Assembly: GCA_021324945.1 (NCBI GenBank)
Contig: JAJPID010000025.1
Coordinates: forward strand, 13,898 to 77,897
Source of the DNA: Lysobacterales bacterium
GTDB taxonomy: Bacteria; Pseudomonadota; Gammaproteobacteria; Xanthomonadales; Rhodanobacteraceae
Reading direction: 5' to 3'
DNA: 64,000 bases
A program made the position numbers and the translations under genes. Within the stretch, counting starts at the first letter, position 1; each line of letters starts with the position of its first letter. Positions 5,101-60,375 of the stretch are shown here, one piece after another. The notes below the pieces were generated by a model. The model worked only from the letters and a program-made list of their open reading frames with translations. It had not been told where the DNA came from and ran no database searches.

Positions 5101-7128
5101 CCGGATTTCAACGGCTCGCTGCGATTGAGCGCGCTCGCCTGGAGCGCCGACAAATTCGGCAACGCCGATGGTGCGATCACCGTGCGCGCGCCGCTGGTGG
5201 TGGAGCCCAGCACGCCGCGCGTGATGGCCGCGGGCGACAGCGCGCAGATCAGCCTCGATCTGAAAAATCTTTCGGGCAATGACGGCGTGGCGAAGGTTTC
5301 GGTGAAAGCCGACGGACCGATCAGCGTCACGAATGCCACGCGTTCGGTTGCGTTGAAGGATGGCGCGGGCACCACGCTGATCGTGCCCGTGACCGCGCAG
5401 AGCGGCGCGGCGGTCGCAAAACTCGACATCCACGCCGAATTGAATGATTACACCGCGAATCGGCATTTTGAATTCGCGGTGCGCCCGGCGTGGCCGGAGC
5501 AGTTGATGACCAAACCCTACGCGATCGAAAACGGCAAGCCGCTGCAACTGGACGCCGCCGAGGCGAACGGCCTGTTCGCGTCCACCGTGCACGCGCAACT
5601 CACATTGAGCACGCTGCCGCCGCTGCCGTATCACTCGGCCTTGCGCGGCCTGCTCGATTACCCGTATGGCTGCGTCGAACAGACCACCAGCAAAGGCTAC
5701 GCCGCGTTGATCCTCGATCCCGCAACGGCGAAAGCGCTGGGCTTCACCGTGACCGATGCCACGCGGCAGGCCATGGTCGAAGGCGCGTTGGCGCGGCTGG
5801 CTTCTTTCCAGGCCAGCAACGGGCATTTCAGTTTCTGGGGCGGCACGAGCCCGATCGAAACCTCCATTACGCCGTATGTCGTCGACTTCATGCTGGATGC
5901 GCGCGAAGCAGGTTTCGCCGTGCCGCAGGAGGTGTTGCAGAAGGCGTTGAAGACCCTCAACGACGATCTGCTGGGGGGCGGCCATCCGTATTTCGACTAT
6001 GAGCATCACGACCACATGCGCATCGCGGACGAAGCGTATTCCGGTTTCGTGCTGGCGCGCGTCAACCGCGCGCCGCTCGGTACGCTGCGCGCGATCTTCG
6101 ACAACGATCGCGGCAAGCTGGTCGCGCCGCTGCCGCTGGTACACCTTGGGCTGGCGTTGAAATTGATGGGCGACAATGAGCGCGCCCGACAGGCGATCGA
6201 CGAGGCCTTCGCGTGGAAGAAGGAGCGTCCGTTGTACGTGGGCGATTATGGTTCCGATCTGCGCGATCTTGCCTTGATGGTGGCGTTGACGCATCGCTTC
6301 GGCATGAACAAGCCGGAATACGACGCCAAGCTGATCGACTGGGCGCGCAACGCGACGGCACTGGAAGCCTCGACTCATGAAAAGATGCCGTATTACCACT
6401 GGTCGTGGTCGTACCTCAGCACACAGGAGCAGAACGCGATCGCACAGGTGGCGCGCGCTTTCGGCGCTGGCAGCGGCGCGCCGCTGGTGGCGAACGTGAA
6501 GATCGGCGGCGAGAGCGAACCCGCGCCGGCGAATGCGCATCTGTGGTCGCGCGACTTGACGCTCGCGGAATTGCAGAGCGGCGTCAGTGTCCAGCCTGCC
6601 GGCAACTCCACGATCTTCGCGTCGCTGGATGTCGCCGGCATTCCGCAGAAAGCGCCTGAACCGGATGCGAGCGCGATCGACATCCGTCGCATGTGGTACA
6701 CCACTGATGGCAAGCCGTGGAACGGTGACACATTGAAGGAAGGCGACAGTCTGATCGCGGAGCTCACCATCGAAGCCAAGGACGACTTGCCCGATGCGCT
6801 CGTCACCGATCTGCTGCCGGGTGGATTGGAGGTTGAGAACCTGAACCTCGGCGGCGTGCAGCAATGGGAAGGTGTGGTGGTAGACGGCATCCAGATGGAC
6901 CAGCACACCAATGCCGCCGACATCGTGCACGAGGAATATCGCGACGACCGCTACGCGGCGGCGCTGAAGCTGCGTCGCGGCGAAGCTTCGCACCTGTTCT
7001 ATCTGGTGCGCGCGGTGACACCCGGGCACTACACCGTGCCGCCGCCTCTGGCCGAGGACATGTACCGGCCCGCCTTGCGCGGCGTCGGCAAGGCCGTGCC
7101 GGAAAAGGTGACGGTGGCGGAGCCGTAA
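2155..7128 (+). CDS. yfhM: Alpha-2-macroglobulin family lipoprotein (YfhM-like)
   Basis: 1657 aa. ATG at 2155 is preceded by GGGAGGGG. Lipobox LLTGC sits near the N-terminus. Thioester motif GCVEQ is encoded at 5671-5682 (YPYGCVEQTTSKGY). Followed directly by pbpC, the classical pairing. Confidence 0.9.
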   Translation: MLHSSCFSALRRGGWILLVCGFLLTGCGHNESATPVLQGALTASSSGKPHKATFGLASAGSEVRDNQTALVLRFNAPLAAAQSFDNQVAVAGPNGEAVSGSWSLDDDNKTLRFPFVQPDQHYVVTLHAQLLAADGRTLGRDIKQDVYSGSVPPAIGFASHGSVLPARGTRGLPLVSVNVHDADIEFFKVHDDALSDLYCAYPQNKHRDSYELDHEISTWDTCGMGRVKRPITEMADSVYANHYTLGGADNERTVTYIPVQNVKQLSAPGVYMAVVKAGGTFKGSYDTAIFFVSDLGLHLRVYRDNSLLHVASLRDGSPVAEVAIEIDDASGAAKLKATTDAGGNALIAYTVKQDDVLIARHGGDVSVLPFNRPALDISNFDVTGRKQAPFEVYAWSGRDLYRPGETLRVSALLRDYDGKPMKPQSLFVRMKQPDGRALPDQRLEPSKLNYFELTQAIPADAPTGSWQLEFRLDPASKKSVQAFPYHVEEFLPERLKLALQSPQARLVPDEPLKLEVAASYLYGAPADGNRFTAKLLVAPEVHPLDNLKDTFFGDPTLDLPKAASDIIDTKLDAQGALQQDVNLPDDVKPVAPLAVTLSGSVYETGGRAVTRTLKRVYWPASQLVGVRPLFDPKQGAESEGQAAFEIVRADVDGKLVAGTHLRVRLQRELRDFYWLYEHGDSWKSDANQHLQLIAEKEIDVAAGGRVHVEFPVEWGGYRVEVYDPGTKLTTVFPFFAGWSWEDENLGKEARPDKVKLQLDKARYRAGDTMKVTVTPPHDGPGVLLVESDHLLYLKDIDAKTGSTFEIPVTKDWERHDVYVSALVFRGGAADEHTTPARALGIEHVVMERDDRRVPLTLSAPDLMRPGNPLNVTVQAKGLAGTQAFVTLSAVDQGVIDITDYPVPDAWAWMFAQRALSVDAYDLYSRIIEAMDGAEATLRYGGDMAAQPLPHATRLNPNVKIVDLFAEPVQFDAQGRATLRVDVPDFNGSLRLSALAWSADKFGNADGAITVRAPLVVEPSTPRVMAAGDSAQISLDLKNLSGNDGVAKVSVKADGPISVTNATRSVALKDGAGTTLIVPVTAQSGAAVAKLDIHAELNDYTANRHFEFAVRPAWPEQLMTKPYAIENGKPLQLDAAEANGLFASTVHAQLTLSTLPPLPYHSALRGLLDYPYGCVEQTTSKGYAALILDPATAKALGFTVTDATRQAMVEGALARLASFQASNGHFSFWGGTSPIETSITPYVVDFMLDAREAGFAVPQEVLQKALKTLNDDLLGGGHPYFDYEHHDHMRIADEAYSGFVLARVNRAPLGTLRAIFDNDRGKLVAPLPLVHLGLALKLMGDNERARQAIDEAFAWKKERPLYVGDYGSDLRDLALMVALTHRFGMNKPEYDAKLIDWARNATALEASTHEKMPYYHWSWSYLSTQEQNAIAQVARAFGAGSGAPLVANVKIGGESEPAPANAHLWSRDLTLAELQSGVSVQPAGNSTIFASLDVAGIPQKAPEPDASAIDIRRMWYTTDGKPWNGDTLKEGDSLIAELTIEAKDDLPDALVTDLLPGGLEVENLNLGGVQQWEGVVVDGIQMDQHTNAADIVHEEYRDDRYAAALKLRRGEASHLFYLVRAVTPGHYTVPPPLAEDMYRPALRGVGKAVPEKVTVAEP

Positions 7129-9485: not shown

Positions 9486-9752
9486 AGAGCCGGATCACGC
9501 TGCTTCGCGAGCCCCGGATTCGATCAGTCGATACGCGCGCTGCAACGCGGTCTCGCGCTGCTCGGCGCCAAAGTTCAAGCCTTCCGCGCGGACGATTTCG
9601 ATATCGCCGATGCCGATGAAGCCGAACACGTGACGCAGATATTTTTCCTGGAAATCGGCGGCGGCTCCGCCCTGATAGGCGCCGCCGCGCGCGGAGGCCA
9701 CGATCACGCGCTTGCCGCCGGCCAGGCCTTCGGGGCCGTGTTCGGTGTACCG

Positions 9753-9760
9753 AAACGTTT
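9753..9760. repeat. Target-site duplication, left copy (AAACGTTT)
   Basis: The same 8-mer flanks the element at 12145-12152. The sequence is palindromic, so the IR/TSD boundary is formally ambiguous. Confidence 0.8.
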
Positions 9761-9776
9761 CGGAAGTATGTACTTG
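9761..9776. repeat. IS terminal inverted repeat (left)
   Basis: CGGAAGTATGTACTTG. Its exact reverse complement is at 12129-12144. Confidence 0.85.
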
Positions 9777-9808
9777 GCTAAAGCCTAGACCGATTGCCGC
9801 ACAAGAGA

Positions 9809-9829
9809 AAGCCCGCACTACGCGGGCTT
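9809..9829. terminator. Hairpin terminator inside the IS, downstream of the cargo ORFs
   Basis: AAGCCCGC-actac-GCGGGCTT, an 8-bp stem. It is followed by TCTTCTTTTT on the + strand and TTTCTCTT on the - strand, so it could act bidirectionally. Confidence 0.55.
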
Positions 9830-9982
9830 CTTCTTTTTCGGCTTCGGTTTTGGATCGTCAGGCCATCCTTCTGCCGGGCGCTCTTTCTTGAGAGCGTCGC
9901 CGATGGCCTTCTCCCATGGCTTGTTGAGCTTGACGCGCTCAGGCTCGGGGCCAGACTTATTCTTCCGTTTCTGGCTTGCCAT
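9818..9982 (-). CDS. Candidate small basic ORF (54 aa), or a frameshifted C-terminal extension of the cargo ORF
   Basis: ATG at 9982, TAG at 9820-9818 inside the terminator stem. Product: MASQKRKNKSGPEPERVKLNKPWEKAIGDALKKERPAEGWPDDPKPKPKKKKPA. It is below the 60-aa cutoff of the track, has no clear SD, and overlaps the 3' end of the 257-aa ORF in the +1 frame. Confidence 0.2.
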   Translation of the reverse strand: MASQKRKNKSGPEPERVKLNKPWEKAIGDALKKERPAEGWPDDPKPKPKKKKPA

Positions 9983-10730
9983 CGGTATCTGGCTTCTGGA
10001 CGGATCGGCTGATCTTACGCTTCACGATGGTTAGCCAGTCCTCAATGTCCTTGAGAGAGTCCGGACTCAAGAGCGCGGGCCATTCAATGGTCACAGCTCC
10101 TTCCTCGATTGAAAAAACATCTTGCCGCATAGGAGTCTCACTATTTGCAGACCGTCGCTGCATACCTCGCTGGGGTGACGGTTGCTGATCCGAATCAATA
10201 TTGGACGCGCCCGTTTCACTCTCATGACCATTAGGCGATTCACGCCCAGATGCGAGGTCATCATATAACTTCTTGGCTTCCGTGACCAGCTCCATTGTTT
10301 CACGATAGGCGCGGATGGGGGCGTCCACGGTGGAAGGCGAGAACCCGCGCTTCAGGAGGTAGGCACGTATGTTTTCATCACTAGGAACCGTTTCCCCGTA
10401 GTGTTCCTTGAGTTCTGAGAACAAGCTGGGGCTGAAAGCTGCGGCCACTACCAACTTCGCGCGATCCTTTGAATCCCTCGGTTCTACAAGGATCGCCAGA
10501 GCCTCAGGGCTTATCTTGAGCTGCTTACCTTCGTCCAAAAGCAGACCGTACTTCTTAAGCGCAGACAGCGCCGTAGCTGACGCGCCGTTTATACCGCTGT
10601 AGCCAAGGGCCTTGGCCATCACTTCGGGGTCTGCCTTATGCGTGTGCTCTTTCTCATAGATTTTCCGGGCGGCCTCAATCGAAGCCGGCAGACTCATTGC
10701 TGGGTAATTCGGACTGCGAACACGGGCCAT
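9957..10730 (-). CDS. IS cargo ORF, hypothetical protein (257 aa)
   Basis: ATG at 10730 has AGGAGA 7 nt upstream. The track ORF extends to 11036, but that extension has no SD. The product has a helical N-terminal ~150 aa (MARVRSPNYPAMSLPASIEAARKIYEKEH...), a Ser/Gln/Glu-rich linker and a ~45-aa C-terminal domain with an acidic tail. I recognise no family. Sampled 60-nt lines are ~45-50% GC. Confidence 0.65.
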   Translation of the reverse strand: MARVRSPNYPAMSLPASIEAARKIYEKEHTHKADPEVMAKALGYSGINGASATALSALKKYGLLLDEGKQLKISPEALAILVEPRDSKDRAKLVVAAAFSPSLFSELKEHYGETVPSDENIRAYLLKRGFSPSTVDAPIRAYRETMELVTEAKKLYDDLASGRESPNGHESETGASNIDSDQQPSPQRGMQRRSANSETPMRQDVFSIEEGAVTIEWPALLSPDSLKDIEDWLTIVKRKISRSVQKPDTDGKPETEE

Positions 10731-10759
10731 GACGGCGTCTCCTGTTTCTACGGAGACAG

Positions 10760-10789
10760 ACGATACAAGATATCCCAGTATCACGTCAA
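10760..10789 (-). promoter_or_regulatory. Candidate sigma70 promoter for the cargo ORF
   Basis: The minus strand reads TTGACG (10789-10784), N18, TATCGT (10765-10760). This lies 29 nt upstream of the ATG at 10730. Confidence 0.3.
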
Positions 10790-10823
10790 GGAGTCGCGAT
10801 ATTTCTCGCGTTAGTGACGATAG

Positions 10824-10852
10824 TTGACAACAGTTTATCGCGCGAGGAGAAT
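10824..10852 (+). promoter_or_regulatory. Candidate plus-strand promoter pointing toward the tRNA-like gene
   Basis: TTGACA (10824-10829), N17, GAGAAT (10847-10852). The -10 is weak and the region is AT-richer, so a chance match is possible. Confidence 0.2.
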
Positions 10853-10943
10853 GCACCCATGGTCGCAAGAGGCACCCGAATGAGGAGAGCTTGAGCCGCT
10901 GCATTCCGTCCAGCTTGGACGGCAGTGTCGCCGAGTGCAGCGG

Positions 10944-10984
10944 CCAAAAAGAAGGCCCGGCAAGCTGGCTAGAGCTTCCGGGCC
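10944..10984 (-). terminator. Rho-independent terminator (minus strand), probable transposase terminator
   Basis: The minus strand reads GGCCCGGAAGCT-ctagcc-AGCTTgCCGGGCC followed by TTCTTTTTGG. Located 130 nt downstream of the transposase stop. Confidence 0.55.
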
Positions 10985-11010
10985 GTGGTGACAAGCCGTC
11001 CACCTTGTGT

Positions 11011-11109
11011 GCCGACGTGGTGGAAATGGTAGACACGCGGACCTAGGAAGTCCGTGGGCGCCGTTGCTAGCGGAGTACGCCCGTGCCGGTTCGATCCTGG
11101 CCGTCGGCA
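11011..11109 (+). tRNA. tRNA-like gene: class II, Leu-like body, anticodon AGG by manual fold, 30-nt variable arm
   Basis: Acceptor stem GCCGACG/CGTCGGC is 7/7 paired, with discriminator A. U8 is present. The D arm GTGG-AAATGGTAGA-CAC is the Leu-type TGGTAGAC signature with G18G19. The anticodon stem CGGAC/GTCCG is 5/5 paired, with loop CTAGGAA (U33, A37). The variable arm GGGCGCCG-ttgctag-CGG-agta-CGCCC is 30 nt. The T arm is GCCGG-TTCGATC-CTGGC (T54 T55 C56 A58 C61 present). No CCA is encoded. The 3' end lies 4 nt from the convergent transposase stop. Confidence 0.55.
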
Positions 11110-11113
11110 GTTT

Positions 11114-12079
11114 TCATTCTACAGCAGAAGCAGGTGTGCGATACGTGAGCCGTTTCCCTTCTGCGGCCTGTATTGCGGCTGTCGTCCGTTCGCCATCTTC
11201 AAGATGGCGATTGTTGTAGCGGAACTCAAACTCAGCCATGTAGCGGTGCAAATGCTCCTTGCTGACCGCGTGGTAGATGCCATTGATCCCGCGCTTCACT
11301 ATCGAGAAGAACCCCTCTATGGTGTTGCTGTGAACGTCGCCGCGCACATATTCTCGGGCGCTGTGGCAAACGGTTTGGTGTCCACCCGCGAACTCCGCGC
11401 CGATACCCGTGTAGGCGCTGTTTTCGTCGGTGATGATGCGAGCCGACGCATGCACGTCCTCTCGGATGGCGTCCTTCAAGGTCTTGCCGGTCACGTTCGC
11501 GATAGGGCGCGTCTTGACCCGTCCGCCGCGCTCGACCATCGCCAGCACACACTGCTTCTTGGTGCCGCGCCCGCGCTTGCTGACGCCCTTGTAGCGCGGC
11601 TTGCCGCCCACATAAGTTTCATCCACCTCAACTTCACCGCCGAGAGGACCGACTACAGAATCCGCCATGGCGAACCGGATGCGGTGAAGCATGAAAAGTG
11701 AAGACTTGTAACTAAGCCCCGTCTGGCGATGAATCTCCAAGGCACTAACGCCCTTCTTTGAAGTGGCGGCGCGCCAGAACGCAAAGCACCAGTGGCGAAG
11801 CTCCGCGCGGCTATCTTCAAACACGGTGCCAGTCCGAACGGTGAATTGCTGGCTCGGATGCTTTTCGCGGCAGCGCCAACGATAATCGGCTTGACGCTCG
11901 CCAGTCCTGCTGTCGCGCATCTGGTACACGTTCAAGCTGCCGCAGCGCGGGCAGGCTGGATGCGCGCCCCAACGCTGCTTTTCCATGAACTCGACCGCTG
12001 CCGCTTCATCCGCGCACGCCAGAGGGATCGCTTCAAGCGTCGGATCGTTCTTCGTTGAGCGGTTTTGAACCTTTGCCAT
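11114..12079 (-). CDS. IS1595-family (ISXO2-like) DDE transposase
   Basis: 321 aa. ATG at 12079 has AGGAGA upstream. N-terminal zinc ribbon (CPRCGS...RWRCREKH). Catalytic-region motifs VEVDETYVGGK, IITDENSAY and HSNTIEGFFSIVKRGI..H..RY..EFEFRYN are typical of the IS1595/ISXO2 transposase domain. Confidence 0.9.
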   Translation of the reverse strand: MAKVQNRSTKNDPTLEAIPLACADEAAAVEFMEKQRWGAHPACPRCGSLNVYQMRDSRTGERQADYRWRCREKHPSQQFTVRTGTVFEDSRAELRHWCFAFWRAATSKKGVSALEIHRQTGLSYKSSLFMLHRIRFAMADSVVGPLGGEVEVDETYVGGKPRYKGVSKRGRGTKKQCVLAMVERGGRVKTRPIANVTGKTLKDAIREDVHASARIITDENSAYTGIGAEFAGGHQTVCHSAREYVRGDVHSNTIEGFFSIVKRGINGIYHAVSKEHLHRYMAEFEFRYNNRHLEDGERTTAAIQAAEGKRLTYRTPASAVE

Positions 12080-12108
12080 GACGTTCTCCTACCTTGGAGA
12101 ACATTTTA

Positions 12109-13531
<1,423 letters not shown>

Positions 13532-59407: not shown

Positions 59408-60375
59408 AGACTCCTGACCAACACGACGATCTGTTCTCCAACTCCGGCGCACGCCCTGACGCGTCGAATGAAATCCGTTTCCACGCCGAGGATGTCGCGT
59501 GTGAGCCATTGCCCGTGCATTCTGTGCGCTCCCTGGGCGCACGCCTGCGCGCCGCGCGCGAAGCGAAAGGCATGCCACTGGCCGAATGCGGACGCGCGCT
59601 GAAATTGCCCCTCCGCGTGCTGGAACGCCTGGAGGCGGGCGAATTCGGCGGCGCCGACGAGTATGTGTTCGTGCGCGGCGCGTTGTACAGCTATGCGCGG
59701 CTCGCCGGCGTGTCGGTGTTGGAAGTCGAAAACGCGCTGCGCGCGGTCGCTCCCCCGGGACAACCCGCGCTGGTACCCACCGGCAATGCGCTACGGGCGC
59801 CGTGGCTGCAACGTTACGGTGCTGCGGCGACCTACATCGTGTTGACCGCCACCGTCGCAGTGCCGCTGGTATGGCTCGGCCTGCGCGGCGGCCTGGACAA
59901 TCAATTGACACGCATCGCACCGCTCGACAGTGCGCCGCCAGTGGCGAGCGCGCCGACGCAACGCGCAACCGGCGACAAATCCGCACCCGTCGCAACGCCG
60001 CCGGCGCGGCAGGAAATTCCTTTGCAGGCCTCCATGACGCCGTTTTCGGCGATGCAGATCGAAGATGACGCCGCATCTTCCCCACAACCTGCAGCGTCGG
60101 CAGCGGCGGACCCGAGTGTCCACGTGCTCAGCCTGAACGTGCGCGCAGACAGCTGGGTCGAGGTTGTCGACGCCGATGGCAAGACGTTGGAGTCGGGTAT
60201 CCTGCATGCGGGTGATCGGCGCACGTACCGCAGCGCCACACCGCTGAACGTCACCGTGGGCAATGCCGACGGTGTGGACGTGCAGAGCGACGGCAAGTCG
60301 CTCTCGCTCGCCCCTTACCGCCGTGCCAACGTGGCACGATTCAAGGCGTTCGACGGCAACACAGGAAACGATTGA
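59404..60375 (+). CDS. rodZ: Cytoskeleton protein RodZ-like (HTH + TM + DUF4115)
   Basis: HTH segment LGARLRAAREAKGMPLAECGRALKLPLRVLERLE, a central TM helix, and a C-terminal beta domain (...ADSWVEVVDADGKTL..GILHAGDRRTY...TVGNADGV). Confidence 0.8.
   Translation: MKTPDQHDDLFSNSGARPDASNEIRFHAEDVACEPLPVHSVRSLGARLRAAREAKGMPLAECGRALKLPLRVLERLEAGEFGGADEYVFVRGALYSYARLAGVSVLEVENALRAVAPPGQPALVPTGNALRAPWLQRYGAAATYIVLTATVAVPLVWLGLRGGLDNQLTRIAPLDSAPPVASAPTQRATGDKSAPVATPPARQEIPLQASMTPFSAMQIEDDAASSPQPAASAAADPSVHVLSLNVRADSWVEVVDADGKTLESGILHAGDRRTYRSATPLNVTVGNADGVDVQSDGKSLSLAPYRRANVARFKAFDGNTGND

Follow-up and report, generated by a model that had tools for sequence, protein, structure and literature searches.

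Suppressor transfer RNAs (tRNAs) of crAss-like and Lak phages recode stop codons in the phage's own late genes (10.1101/2021.08.26.457843, PMC9523058), and the nev-tRNAs of nematodes are leucylated because leucyl-tRNA synthetase (LeuRS) ignores the anticodon (PMC3333845, PMC4300185). Mismatches between the anticodon and the identity of a tRNA are also known from bacteria, namely in the allo-tRNAs (PMC5389517) and in tRNAProX of Streptomyces (PMC10404621). Here, we describe a tRNA gene carried by an insertion sequence (IS) of the IS1595 family in the genome of a Lysobacterales bacterium. The analysed stretch of 64,000 nt (contig JAJPID010000025.1 of assembly GCA_021324945.1, positions 13,898 to 77,897) is referred to as the window, and all positions are given in its own numbering. 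The IS occupies 9761-12144; within it lies a class II, leucine-type tRNA gene with the proline anticodon AGG (11011-11109, plus strand), next to the transposase gene (11114-12079, minus strand). Based on the comparison of related elements, the tRNA probably inserts a residue other than proline at a few private proline codons of the transposase gene, which would make active transposase dependent on the element's own tRNA. With slightly less confidence, we lean towards the wider view that the IS family runs a private code, in which a tRNA charged independently of its anticodon reassigns a rare proline codon to a hydrophobic residue at essential transposase positions. A non-exhaustive full-text search of the literature gave no report of an IS-borne tRNA of the leucine type that has a proline anticodon, and natural mistranslating tRNAs were reviewed in 2024 without mention of a comparable case (PMC11415595).

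The tRNA gene had initially been noticed in a reading of the DNA letters and open reading frames (ORFs) without database searches, referred to here as the sequence-only reading. The complete cloverleaf that this reading proposed for 11011-11109, with a leucine-type D arm and the discriminator base A73, holds at the level of the sequence, of the minimum free energy (MFE) fold, which is the cloverleaf, and of the covariation among homologues. The 5' half reads GCCGACG-UG-GUGG-AAAUGGUAGA-CAC-G-CGGAC-CUAGGAA-GUCCG and the 3' half, following the 30-nt variable region, GCCGG-UUCGAUC-CUGGC-CGUCGGC-A. All stems are perfect: the acceptor stem GCCGACG/CGUCGGC pairs at 7/7 positions, CGGAC/GUCCG forms the anticodon stem, GUGG-AAAUGGUAGA-CAC the D arm and GCCGG-UUCGAUC-CUGGC the T arm. 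The 3' CCA is not encoded, and GTTTTC follows directly. As read before, the anticodon AGG (11045-11047) lies in the 7-nt loop CUAGGAA (11043-11049), which differs from the family consensus YUUGGAA solely at position 34. For the variable region (11055-11084), the proposed length of 30 nt and the 4-nt bulge stand, but the arm folds with 5+5 bp and a 3-nt loop instead of 5+3 bp and a 7-nt loop; two substitutions of close relatives in this arm fall one in the loop and one in the bulge.

The covariance model RF00005 scored 11005-11115 with 44.7 bits (gathering score 29, E = 5e-9) and was covered in full, and a model of the tRNA family, R1, gave 72.4 bits. ARAGORN called no tRNA at 11011-11109, and Rfam searched over the whole window at gathering thresholds had no match to this gene; on a 300-nt piece, Rfam returned only a weak tRNA-Sec match. 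After in-silico shortening of the variable arm, ARAGORN called a tRNA-Pro(agg). We regard the misses as false negatives, since they are due to the 30-nt variable arm and to speed filters. The single-sequence folding energy was unexceptional (z = -1.09) and was not used as evidence. No second copy of the tRNA was found within the window; a weak model match at 59704-59785 is not a tRNA. A candidate internal promoter composed of the variable arm (TTGAC) and the T loop was dropped, its spacing being inconsistent among the family sequences.

To place the gene in a wider context, species-representative genomes were scanned with the transposase, which yielded 80 loci of 36-86% identity; near many of them, ARAGORN annotated 85-96-nt 'tRNA-Pro(tgg)' genes. 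A family covariance model built from 16 tRNA copies matched in nearly all loci whose transposase is at least about 47% identical to that of the window, and found no tRNA in the 42 more distant loci (L039-L080). Altogether, a tRNA of this kind is found in about 45 related elements of several phyla. Its length is 83-120 nt and its variable arm 14-50 nt, and the relatives score 52-60 bits with RF00005; the CCA end is encoded in about a third of the copies. Homologous inverted repeats (IRs) enclose transposase and tRNA in at least 17 relatives with element sizes of 2.0-3.9 kb, and the smallest elements consist of transposase, tRNA and a small ORF only. The position of the tRNA varies, and in some elements it is located upstream of the transposase on either strand. 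A metagenome scan that was blind to the transposase, using the tRNA pattern only (Leu-type D arm, UGG loop, T loop), recovered 15 genuine family tRNAs; for 11 of them, the contig also contains the transposase or the small ORF.

In a separate observation, four UGG family tRNAs (L102 1542-2876, L113 1574-2295, L243 2685-4949, L225 10930-11014) were without an IS1595 transposase on the fetched DNA; one is located beside a Panacea/SocA-like toxin-antitoxin pair, one beside an NYN-domain gene, one beside a tyrosine integrase and one on a phage-like contig. Rfam matches at gathering level in or beside related loci comprised DUF3800-IX RNA (L026 2764-2828, minus), anti-hemB (L010 4921-5013, minus) and sX13 (L001 4367-4477, minus), which probably belong to the host or the flanking DNA and have no relation to the tRNA.

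The comparison of homologues also bears on the explanation that the gene is a captured host tRNA-Leu with a mutated anticodon that is now decaying, an alternative already raised in the sequence-only reading. Such an origin would need little, as UAG to UGG and U34 to A are single-base changes, and neither ARAGORN nor the first Rfam pass called the window copy. However, the stems are perfect and the RF00005 score, the covariance-model check suggested at the time, lies above the threshold. Across 16 homologues, 99.4% of the cells are paired, compared with about 40% when the partners are slid by 1-3 columns, and double-sided (compensatory) changes are found at 17/20 pairs; the observed values were reached by 0/500 shuffles. 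The related ISs thus keep the tRNA segment across phyla with compensatory changes, the other outcome that the sequence-only reading had proposed to look for. In addition, close relatives (L201-L205) differ from the window element by 33-40% at four-fold sites, but by only 2-5 positions per 99 nt in the tRNA, one of the differences being a compensatory A:U to G:C pair (P ~6e-11 under neutrality, three lineages), and AGG is retained in all of them. The decaying remnant is thereby refuted, and its probability is practically nil. The tRNA of the window is real and under strong selection.

The most informative evidence on its role came from the transposase genes. We aligned 25 transposases of tRNA-bearing elements with 38 from elements without tRNA (outgroup) and found two classes of proline codons. 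Ordinary proline columns (e.g. window residues 44 and 161) contain mixed GC-rich codons, with Pro or Ala in the outgroup. The second class comprises four special columns, corresponding to residues 19, 145, 192 and 316 of the window transposase, at which the outgroup has I/V/M/F, K, V and L, respectively. Elements with the anticodon UGG use CCA in 53/57 cases at these columns versus 45/189 at their other proline codons (p = 9e-22). The transposase gene of the window contains exactly four CCT codons, and these are exactly the four special columns.

All four private codons are read on the minus strand. Codon 19 (12023-12025) lies in a predicted helix (residues 13-23), and 20/22 UGG elements have CCA here. 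Codon 145 (11645-11647) is placed in a predicted loop; CCA is found in 10/11 UGG elements with Pro at this column, other elements have K, M, Q or Leu codons, and the column alternates between CCA and CTG/TTG. Codon 192 (11504-11506), in a predicted strand (residues 188-193), is CCA in 7/8 UGG elements with Pro here and otherwise Val, both in the rest of the ingroup and in 26/38 outgroup sequences. Codon 316 (11132-11134) belongs to the low-confidence tail of the model; it is CCA in 16/16 UGG elements with Pro at this position, and in the outgroup, 32/38 sequences show Leu here as part of the motif RLTYxEL. In L022, which belongs to the ingroup but has no family tRNA, the residues are Lys at 145, Val at 192 and Leu (CTG) at 316.

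The anticodon of the family always belongs to the proline box, with UGG in most elements, AGG in the lineage of the window and GGG in L014 and L166, and AGG is a derived variant of the UGG family. In a blind test, CCT at the special columns of L014 and L166, which are not sister lineages, was noted before their anticodons were read; both turned out to have GGG, which cannot read CCA. Over all elements, CCT stands at the special columns in 9/9 cases without U34 versus 4/82 cases with U34 (p = 9e-10), and counted per element the figures are 3/3 versus 0/33 (p = 1.4e-4). Likewise, presence of the cognate private codon goes with that of the tRNA (40/40 versus 1/6, p = 4e-6). Hence, the anticodon of the IS tRNA co-varies with site-specific codons of the transposase. 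The two UGG elements closest to the window lineage, L001 and L206, have CCT at column 19 and CCA at 192 and 316, a state that may be an intermediate toward the AGG/CCT configuration. Close relatives of the window element retain all four CCT codons, and the ordinary proline codons 13, 41, 44 and 75 have flipped. The bases flanking the private codons are not conserved; only the in-frame triplet is under selection. As the flanks are not conserved, an extended pairing between the mRNA and the anticodon loop around these codons was rejected, and no slippery or frameshift contexts were seen at them. With about 45 copies in ISs, a nearly unchanged AGG and codons that follow the anticodon, the data favour the earlier suggestion of a mobile leucine-type tRNA that would mis-assign CCU.

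Which amino acid the tRNA would deliver depends on its identity elements. By decoding it is not a tRNA-Leu, as the anticodon is neither NAG nor NAA (AGG here, UGG/GGG in relatives). The body is a different matter: all class II members have in common the D arm GUGGCGAAAYUGGUAGACGC, A15 with U48, a canonical T loop and A73, which is present in the window copy and invariant in the family. At the sequence level, the hinge elements of tRNA-Leu (A15-U48, G18G19, A20a and the tertiary pairs between D and T loops) are in place; the window tRNA has a U directly before the T stem, the T loop UUCGAUC and the D loop AAAUGGUAGA. Conversely, the family model scored genuine tRNA-Leu with 66-72 bits versus 38-47 bits for tRNA-Ser and at most 35 bits for class I tRNAs. 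In E. coli, leucine identity rests on A73 and the hinge elements and on neither the anticodon nor the variable arm (PMC9976931). Because LeuRS does not read the anticodon and the body is of the leucine type, charging with leucine is expected, as we infer from the identity rules of E. coli and A. aeolicus.

A faithful supply tRNA, charged with proline and boosting the decoding of a rare proline codon as phage tRNAs do, would be a rival explanation. The determinants of bacterial prolyl-tRNA synthetase (ProRS) are G35, G36, A73, G72, G15:C48 and G37 (PMC9976931). The first three are present in the IS tRNA and could suffice for this role; in addition, the anticodon is always in the proline box, and the cognate rare codon is enriched in the IS genes, including true proline sites of the small ORF. 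However, the other three are missing: C72 replaces G72 in all copies but L037, A15:U48 replaces G15:C48, and position 37 is A in the window and most copies. The body is of class II with 83-120 nt versus the class I body of about 77 nt of tRNA-Pro, and its conserved parts are the determinants of LeuRS. The codon data are difficult to reconcile with a supply function as well. The host tRNA-Pro(UGG) already reads CCA, so there would be no selection for a single codon at four columns; conserved proline columns use CCG/CCC, and elements without the tRNA have hydrophobic residues, or Leu, at the four special columns. We therefore consider a supply tRNA unlikely.

A further argument comes from four elements of Phycisphaerales (L020, L026, L030 and L035). 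These are without a class II tRNA and instead have, at the corresponding position, a tRNA-like gene of some 70 nt (L020 2812-2887, L026 4073-4141, L030 2499-2569, L035 3992-4062). All four genes have G3:U70 together with A73, the alanine identity set, while their other acceptor pairs vary, and CUGG is found in their loops. In the corresponding transposases, column 19 is CCA, and so is column 316 wherever the alignment extends that far. As judged from these features, the subclade is supportive, though not conclusive, of a second anticodon-blind identity, in which the proline anticodon would be constant and the choice of synthetase variable. The exchange of the leucine body for an alanine-type and not a proline-type body is also at odds with a supply of prolyl-tRNA. 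The D arms of the alanine-type genes are non-canonical, 10-nt loops occur in two of the genes, and the T loop of L035 deviates from the canonical form as well.

Besides that, several other unusual tRNAs were observed in or near the related loci. The tRNA of L017 (5605-5715, minus) has about 30 additional nt in the anticodon loop, which include a hairpin of their own; the effective anticodon is unreadable, and CCG stands at the special columns of the L017 transposase. L019 carries a serine-type tRNA with the leucine anticodon CAA (2672-2759) in tandem with a UGG tRNA, L024 a class II tRNA with the ochre anticodon UUA (5216-5307), and L022 a leucine-type tRNA with the alanine anticodon UGC (930-1017). 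No matching special codons for the CAA, UUA and UGC tRNAs were found in the transposases of L019, L024 and L022.

We propose the following mechanism. The conserved core of the element is the transposase, a small basic protein and the tRNA gene. The tRNA would be charged by an anticodon-blind synthetase, namely LeuRS, or alanyl-tRNA synthetase (AlaRS) in the case of the G3:U70 variant of Phycisphaerales, and the transposase gene holds two to four private proline codons that are exact Watson-Crick cognates of the element's own anticodon (CCA for UGG, CCU for AGG). Decoding of these codons by the IS tRNA would insert leucine and give a functional, ancestral-like transposase, and decoding by the host tRNA-Pro would instead give a probably impaired product, with proline at residue 19 in a helix and at residue 192 in a beta-strand. 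Proline at these two residues of the predicted structure would plausibly impair folding; a hydrophobic residue is the ancestral state at both. Full activity would be confined to molecules in which the IS tRNA has decoded every private codon. In competition with the host tRNA-Pro, the IS tRNA would correct only part of the transposase; the ratio of the two tRNAs would govern transposition and act as a throttle on it. The origin of such a system would be easy, with UAG to UGG in a tRNA-Leu and CUA to CCA in a codon each being single-base changes. Expression of the tRNA, its charging with leucine, the effect of proline versus leucine on the transposase and the regulatory logic are all inferred.

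The same identity arguments would also fit a general mistranslation device, i.e. a leucine-charged tRNA that is selected for proteome-wide Pro-to-Leu ambiguity, with possible roles in stress response, a toxin-like or addiction function, or a benefit to the host, while the transposase codons merely drifted. Natural precedents exist in tRNAProX (PMC10404621), nev-tRNA (PMC3333845) and allo-tRNA (PMC5389517), and family tRNAs are occasionally found beside toxin-antitoxin or integrase genes without a transposase. Drift, however, cannot account for 93% CCA at four columns, nor for the fact that CCT was adopted in concert with three independent changes of the anticodon. Furthermore, CCA and CCT are the rarest proline codons in the host genes (each 3.6 per 1000 codons), which minimises a proteome-wide effect; according to our proposal, this rarity would limit collateral mistranslation. 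A device of this kind thus appears improbable, and the likely targets are a few dedicated codons in the element's own transposase and not the host proteome in general.

Several observations weigh against a private code, or at least against a strict one. The partial ProRS identity set (A73, G35, G36) leaves some room for prolylation, and the decoding competence of the alanine-type variants is doubtful. The codon pattern has exceptions: some UGG elements have CCT, CCC or CCG at private columns, column 316 is also Q, S or A in some elements, the GGG elements use CCU and not the Watson-Crick cognate CCC, and CCA, though depleted at the ordinary proline columns, still occurs there. Taken alone, the test for frozen codons in the close relatives is marginal (P = 0.055). 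The small ORF uses CCA freely, even at an invariant proline (13/21), and that of the window has CCT at two conserved proline sites. Since the small ORF uses the private codon, any recoding must be partial or ambiguous, or be tolerated in this ORF; a full codon reassignment is ruled out by the private codon in the small ORF and at some ordinary proline columns. Two family-type UGG tRNAs are located on viral contigs, where the IS1595 transposase is absent within about 4-5 kb. Finally, the distances of tRNA and transposase are uncorrelated (Mantel r = 0.10, p = 0.23), so a co-phylogeny of the two is not supported, and the module appears to be shuffled between elements without strict co-inheritance. 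For example, the nearest transposase to that of the window, in L001 (85%), comes with a different tRNA at a different place, and the window tRNA resembles that of L013.

A third explanation keeps the tRNA away from the ribosome altogether. In this case, it would be a non-translational tRNA-like RNA, acting as an antisense or transcriptional-interference regulator of the convergent transposase, as an RNase P/Z processing signal or as a protein-binding scaffold. The local arrangement lends itself to such a function. As described in the sequence-only reading, the tRNA and the transposase gene converge, with 4 nt between the tRNA and the transposase stop codon, and the tRNA precedes the intrinsic terminator of the transposase transcript (10944-10984, minus), a 12-bp GC-rich hairpin followed by UUCUUUUU. 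The terminator lies beyond the tRNA antisense, and equivalent hairpins are found in many relatives; the convergent layout with a terminator beyond the tRNA recurs.

On the 5' side, the tRNA is preceded by a strongly conserved structured leader (10893-11010, plus) with three hairpins, one of which is the transposase terminator (MFE -72.5 kcal/mol, z = -3.9). The leader is nearly invariant in L201 and L204, lineages with 33-40% divergence at neutral sites, and L003 has the same architecture with compensatory changes. A sigma-70-like promoter, TTGACA-17-GAGAAT (10824-10852, plus), is directed at the leader and tRNA; a promoter-like site at the equivalent place is kept in L201 and L204 though the surrounding DNA has diverged. 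A scan for sigma-70 promoters 5' of all family tRNAs was inconsistent across phyla and is informative only among close relatives.

The anticodon loops of L017, L030 and L035, which are unfit for decoding, would also agree with a non-translational RNA. However, the family conserves the features of charging and decoding (A73, the 7-nt loop, U33, purine 37, G18G19 and the T loop, and, in roughly one copy out of three, an encoded CCA), some elements have the tRNA upstream of the transposase, on one strand or the other, so that antisense pairing is not its general role, and the in-frame covariation of codon and anticodon is hard to explain without decoding. We regard a purely non-translational RNA as quite improbable, more so than either of the other two roles discussed above. 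An antisense coupling of the tRNA with the transposase mRNA in addition to decoding is plausible in view of the recurrent layout: the usual convergent arrangement would place the tRNA antisense into the 3' untranslated region of the transposase mRNA and could add negative feedback.

The boundaries of the IS (2,384 bp, lower GC) are defined by the inverted repeats CGGAAGTATGTACTTG... at its termini and by an 8-bp target site duplication (TSD), AAACGTTT, at 9753-9760 and 12145-12152. An 8-bp TSD is a trait of the IS1595 family (ISfinder). The element interrupts a gene for an AzoR-like reductase dependent on flavin mononucleotide, with a flavodoxin fold, whose halves are located at 9495-9760 and 12153-12771 (minus). 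In-silico removal of the IS together with one repeat restores an intact AzoR-like ORF. The repeats, the TSD and this excision place the tRNA within the IS, as had been proposed from the sequence. The insertion seems to be recent, because both AzoR-like halves are intact and the TSD is perfect. A search of a plasmid collection gave no DNA match to the element, and the protein matches were at most 43% identical, which is the outgroup level; the collection thus offered no annotated member of the tRNA-bearing clade.

The transposase (321 aa) has an N-terminal Zn-ribbon and a DDE domain and matches PF12762 (E = 6e-43), PF12760 and the NCBIfam model NF033547 (190.9 bits, cut-off 75). There is no solved structure of this protein; its AlphaFold model reached a pLDDT of 81 and a pTM of 0.80. 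A sigma-70-like promoter of the transposase, TTGACG-17-TAAAAT (12103-12131, minus), is partly located in the right inverted repeat. The small ORF (9818-9982, minus) encodes a basic protein of 54 aa with the motif GPxPxRxK...W..A...AL.K.RP..GWP, for which tblastn matches in about 33 loci could be aligned. It co-occurs with the tRNA across the whole clade and may assist the tRNA and transposase as an accessory factor. Its database relatives number at least 687, all labelled hypothetical; there was no match to Pfam and NCBIfam, and the predicted structure is one short helix flanked by disorder. A passenger ORF of 257 aa (9957-10730, minus) does not belong to the conserved core. It had no match to Pfam and NCBIfam, homologues among the related loci are confined to L001, L019 and L032, and L201 and L204 have a different passenger of 311-314 aa at the same place.

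If the proposed private code is true, the IS family would be the first natural case of a transposon that carries a sense-to-sense codon reassignment, and it would mean that a mobile element of about 2 kb can keep a code-altering tRNA as a core gene. It would add a new type of transposase control, a missense-suppression step that gates transposase activity by the competition between element and host tRNA, and that possibly responds to the charging status with proline and leucine. The meaning of a sense codon would be locally and deliberately ambiguous in bacteria of several phyla. In consequence, gene callers and protein databases would mistranslate these transposases by giving Pro in place of the Leu or Ala actually inserted. 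Many genes of the family escape tRNA finders because their variable arms reach up to 50 nt. The family would also provide natural, compact tRNAs for Pro-to-Leu and Pro-to-Ala recoding in synthetic biology. With one tRNA, four codons and transposition as read-out, the use of sense-codon ambiguity as regulation by selection becomes testable.

Among the described systems, the IS tRNA shares features with several but coincides with none. Like the phage suppressor tRNAs, it belongs to a mobile element and would change a codon placed in-frame in the element's own genes within a standard-code host, with a potential for self-regulation; an element-encoded tRNA together with in-frame cognate codons in the element's own gene is what it has in common with the code-changing tRNAs of mobile genetic elements. 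Unlike the phage suppressors, the IS system would act from sense to sense (Pro CCA/CCU), as its anticodon reads no stop codon, and the competitor would be a host tRNA in place of a release factor. The carrier is an IS of 2-4 kb with 2-4 dedicated codons in one gene. The nev-tRNAs (PMC3333845, PMC4300185) are likewise of class II and leucine type, with a long variable arm, A73 and a foreign anticodon; however, they are chromosomal and eukaryotic, have Gly(CCC) or Ile(UAU) anticodons, and neither a linkage to mobile elements nor target codons are known for them. With the allo-tRNAs (PMC5389517), the family has in common the bacterial origin, the long variable arm and the mismatch of anticodon and identity, and some allo-tRNAs are located near transposon or toxin-antitoxin genes. 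The IS family is nevertheless not a group of allo-tRNAs, since these have an 8/4 or 9/3 geometry of acceptor and T stem and serine identity, with no codon co-adaptation reported, whereas the IS tRNAs show the canonical 7/5 geometry, the leucine-type D arm and A73. The tRNAProX/ProRSx system of Streptomyces (PMC10404621) is another case of a maintained bacterial tRNA with mismatched identity and anticodon, but it works in the reverse direction, with proline identity and Ala, Thr or Asn anticodons, is chromosomal and employs a dedicated synthetase paralogue. In terms of regulation, a parallel is the -1 frameshifting of IS1 and IS3 transposases (PMC5009743), which is likewise a translational recoding that limits active transposase. 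There, slippery sequences and host tRNAs are used, without an element tRNA or an amino-acid substitution; in the IS1595 elements described here, the limit would be set by a tRNA of the element itself.

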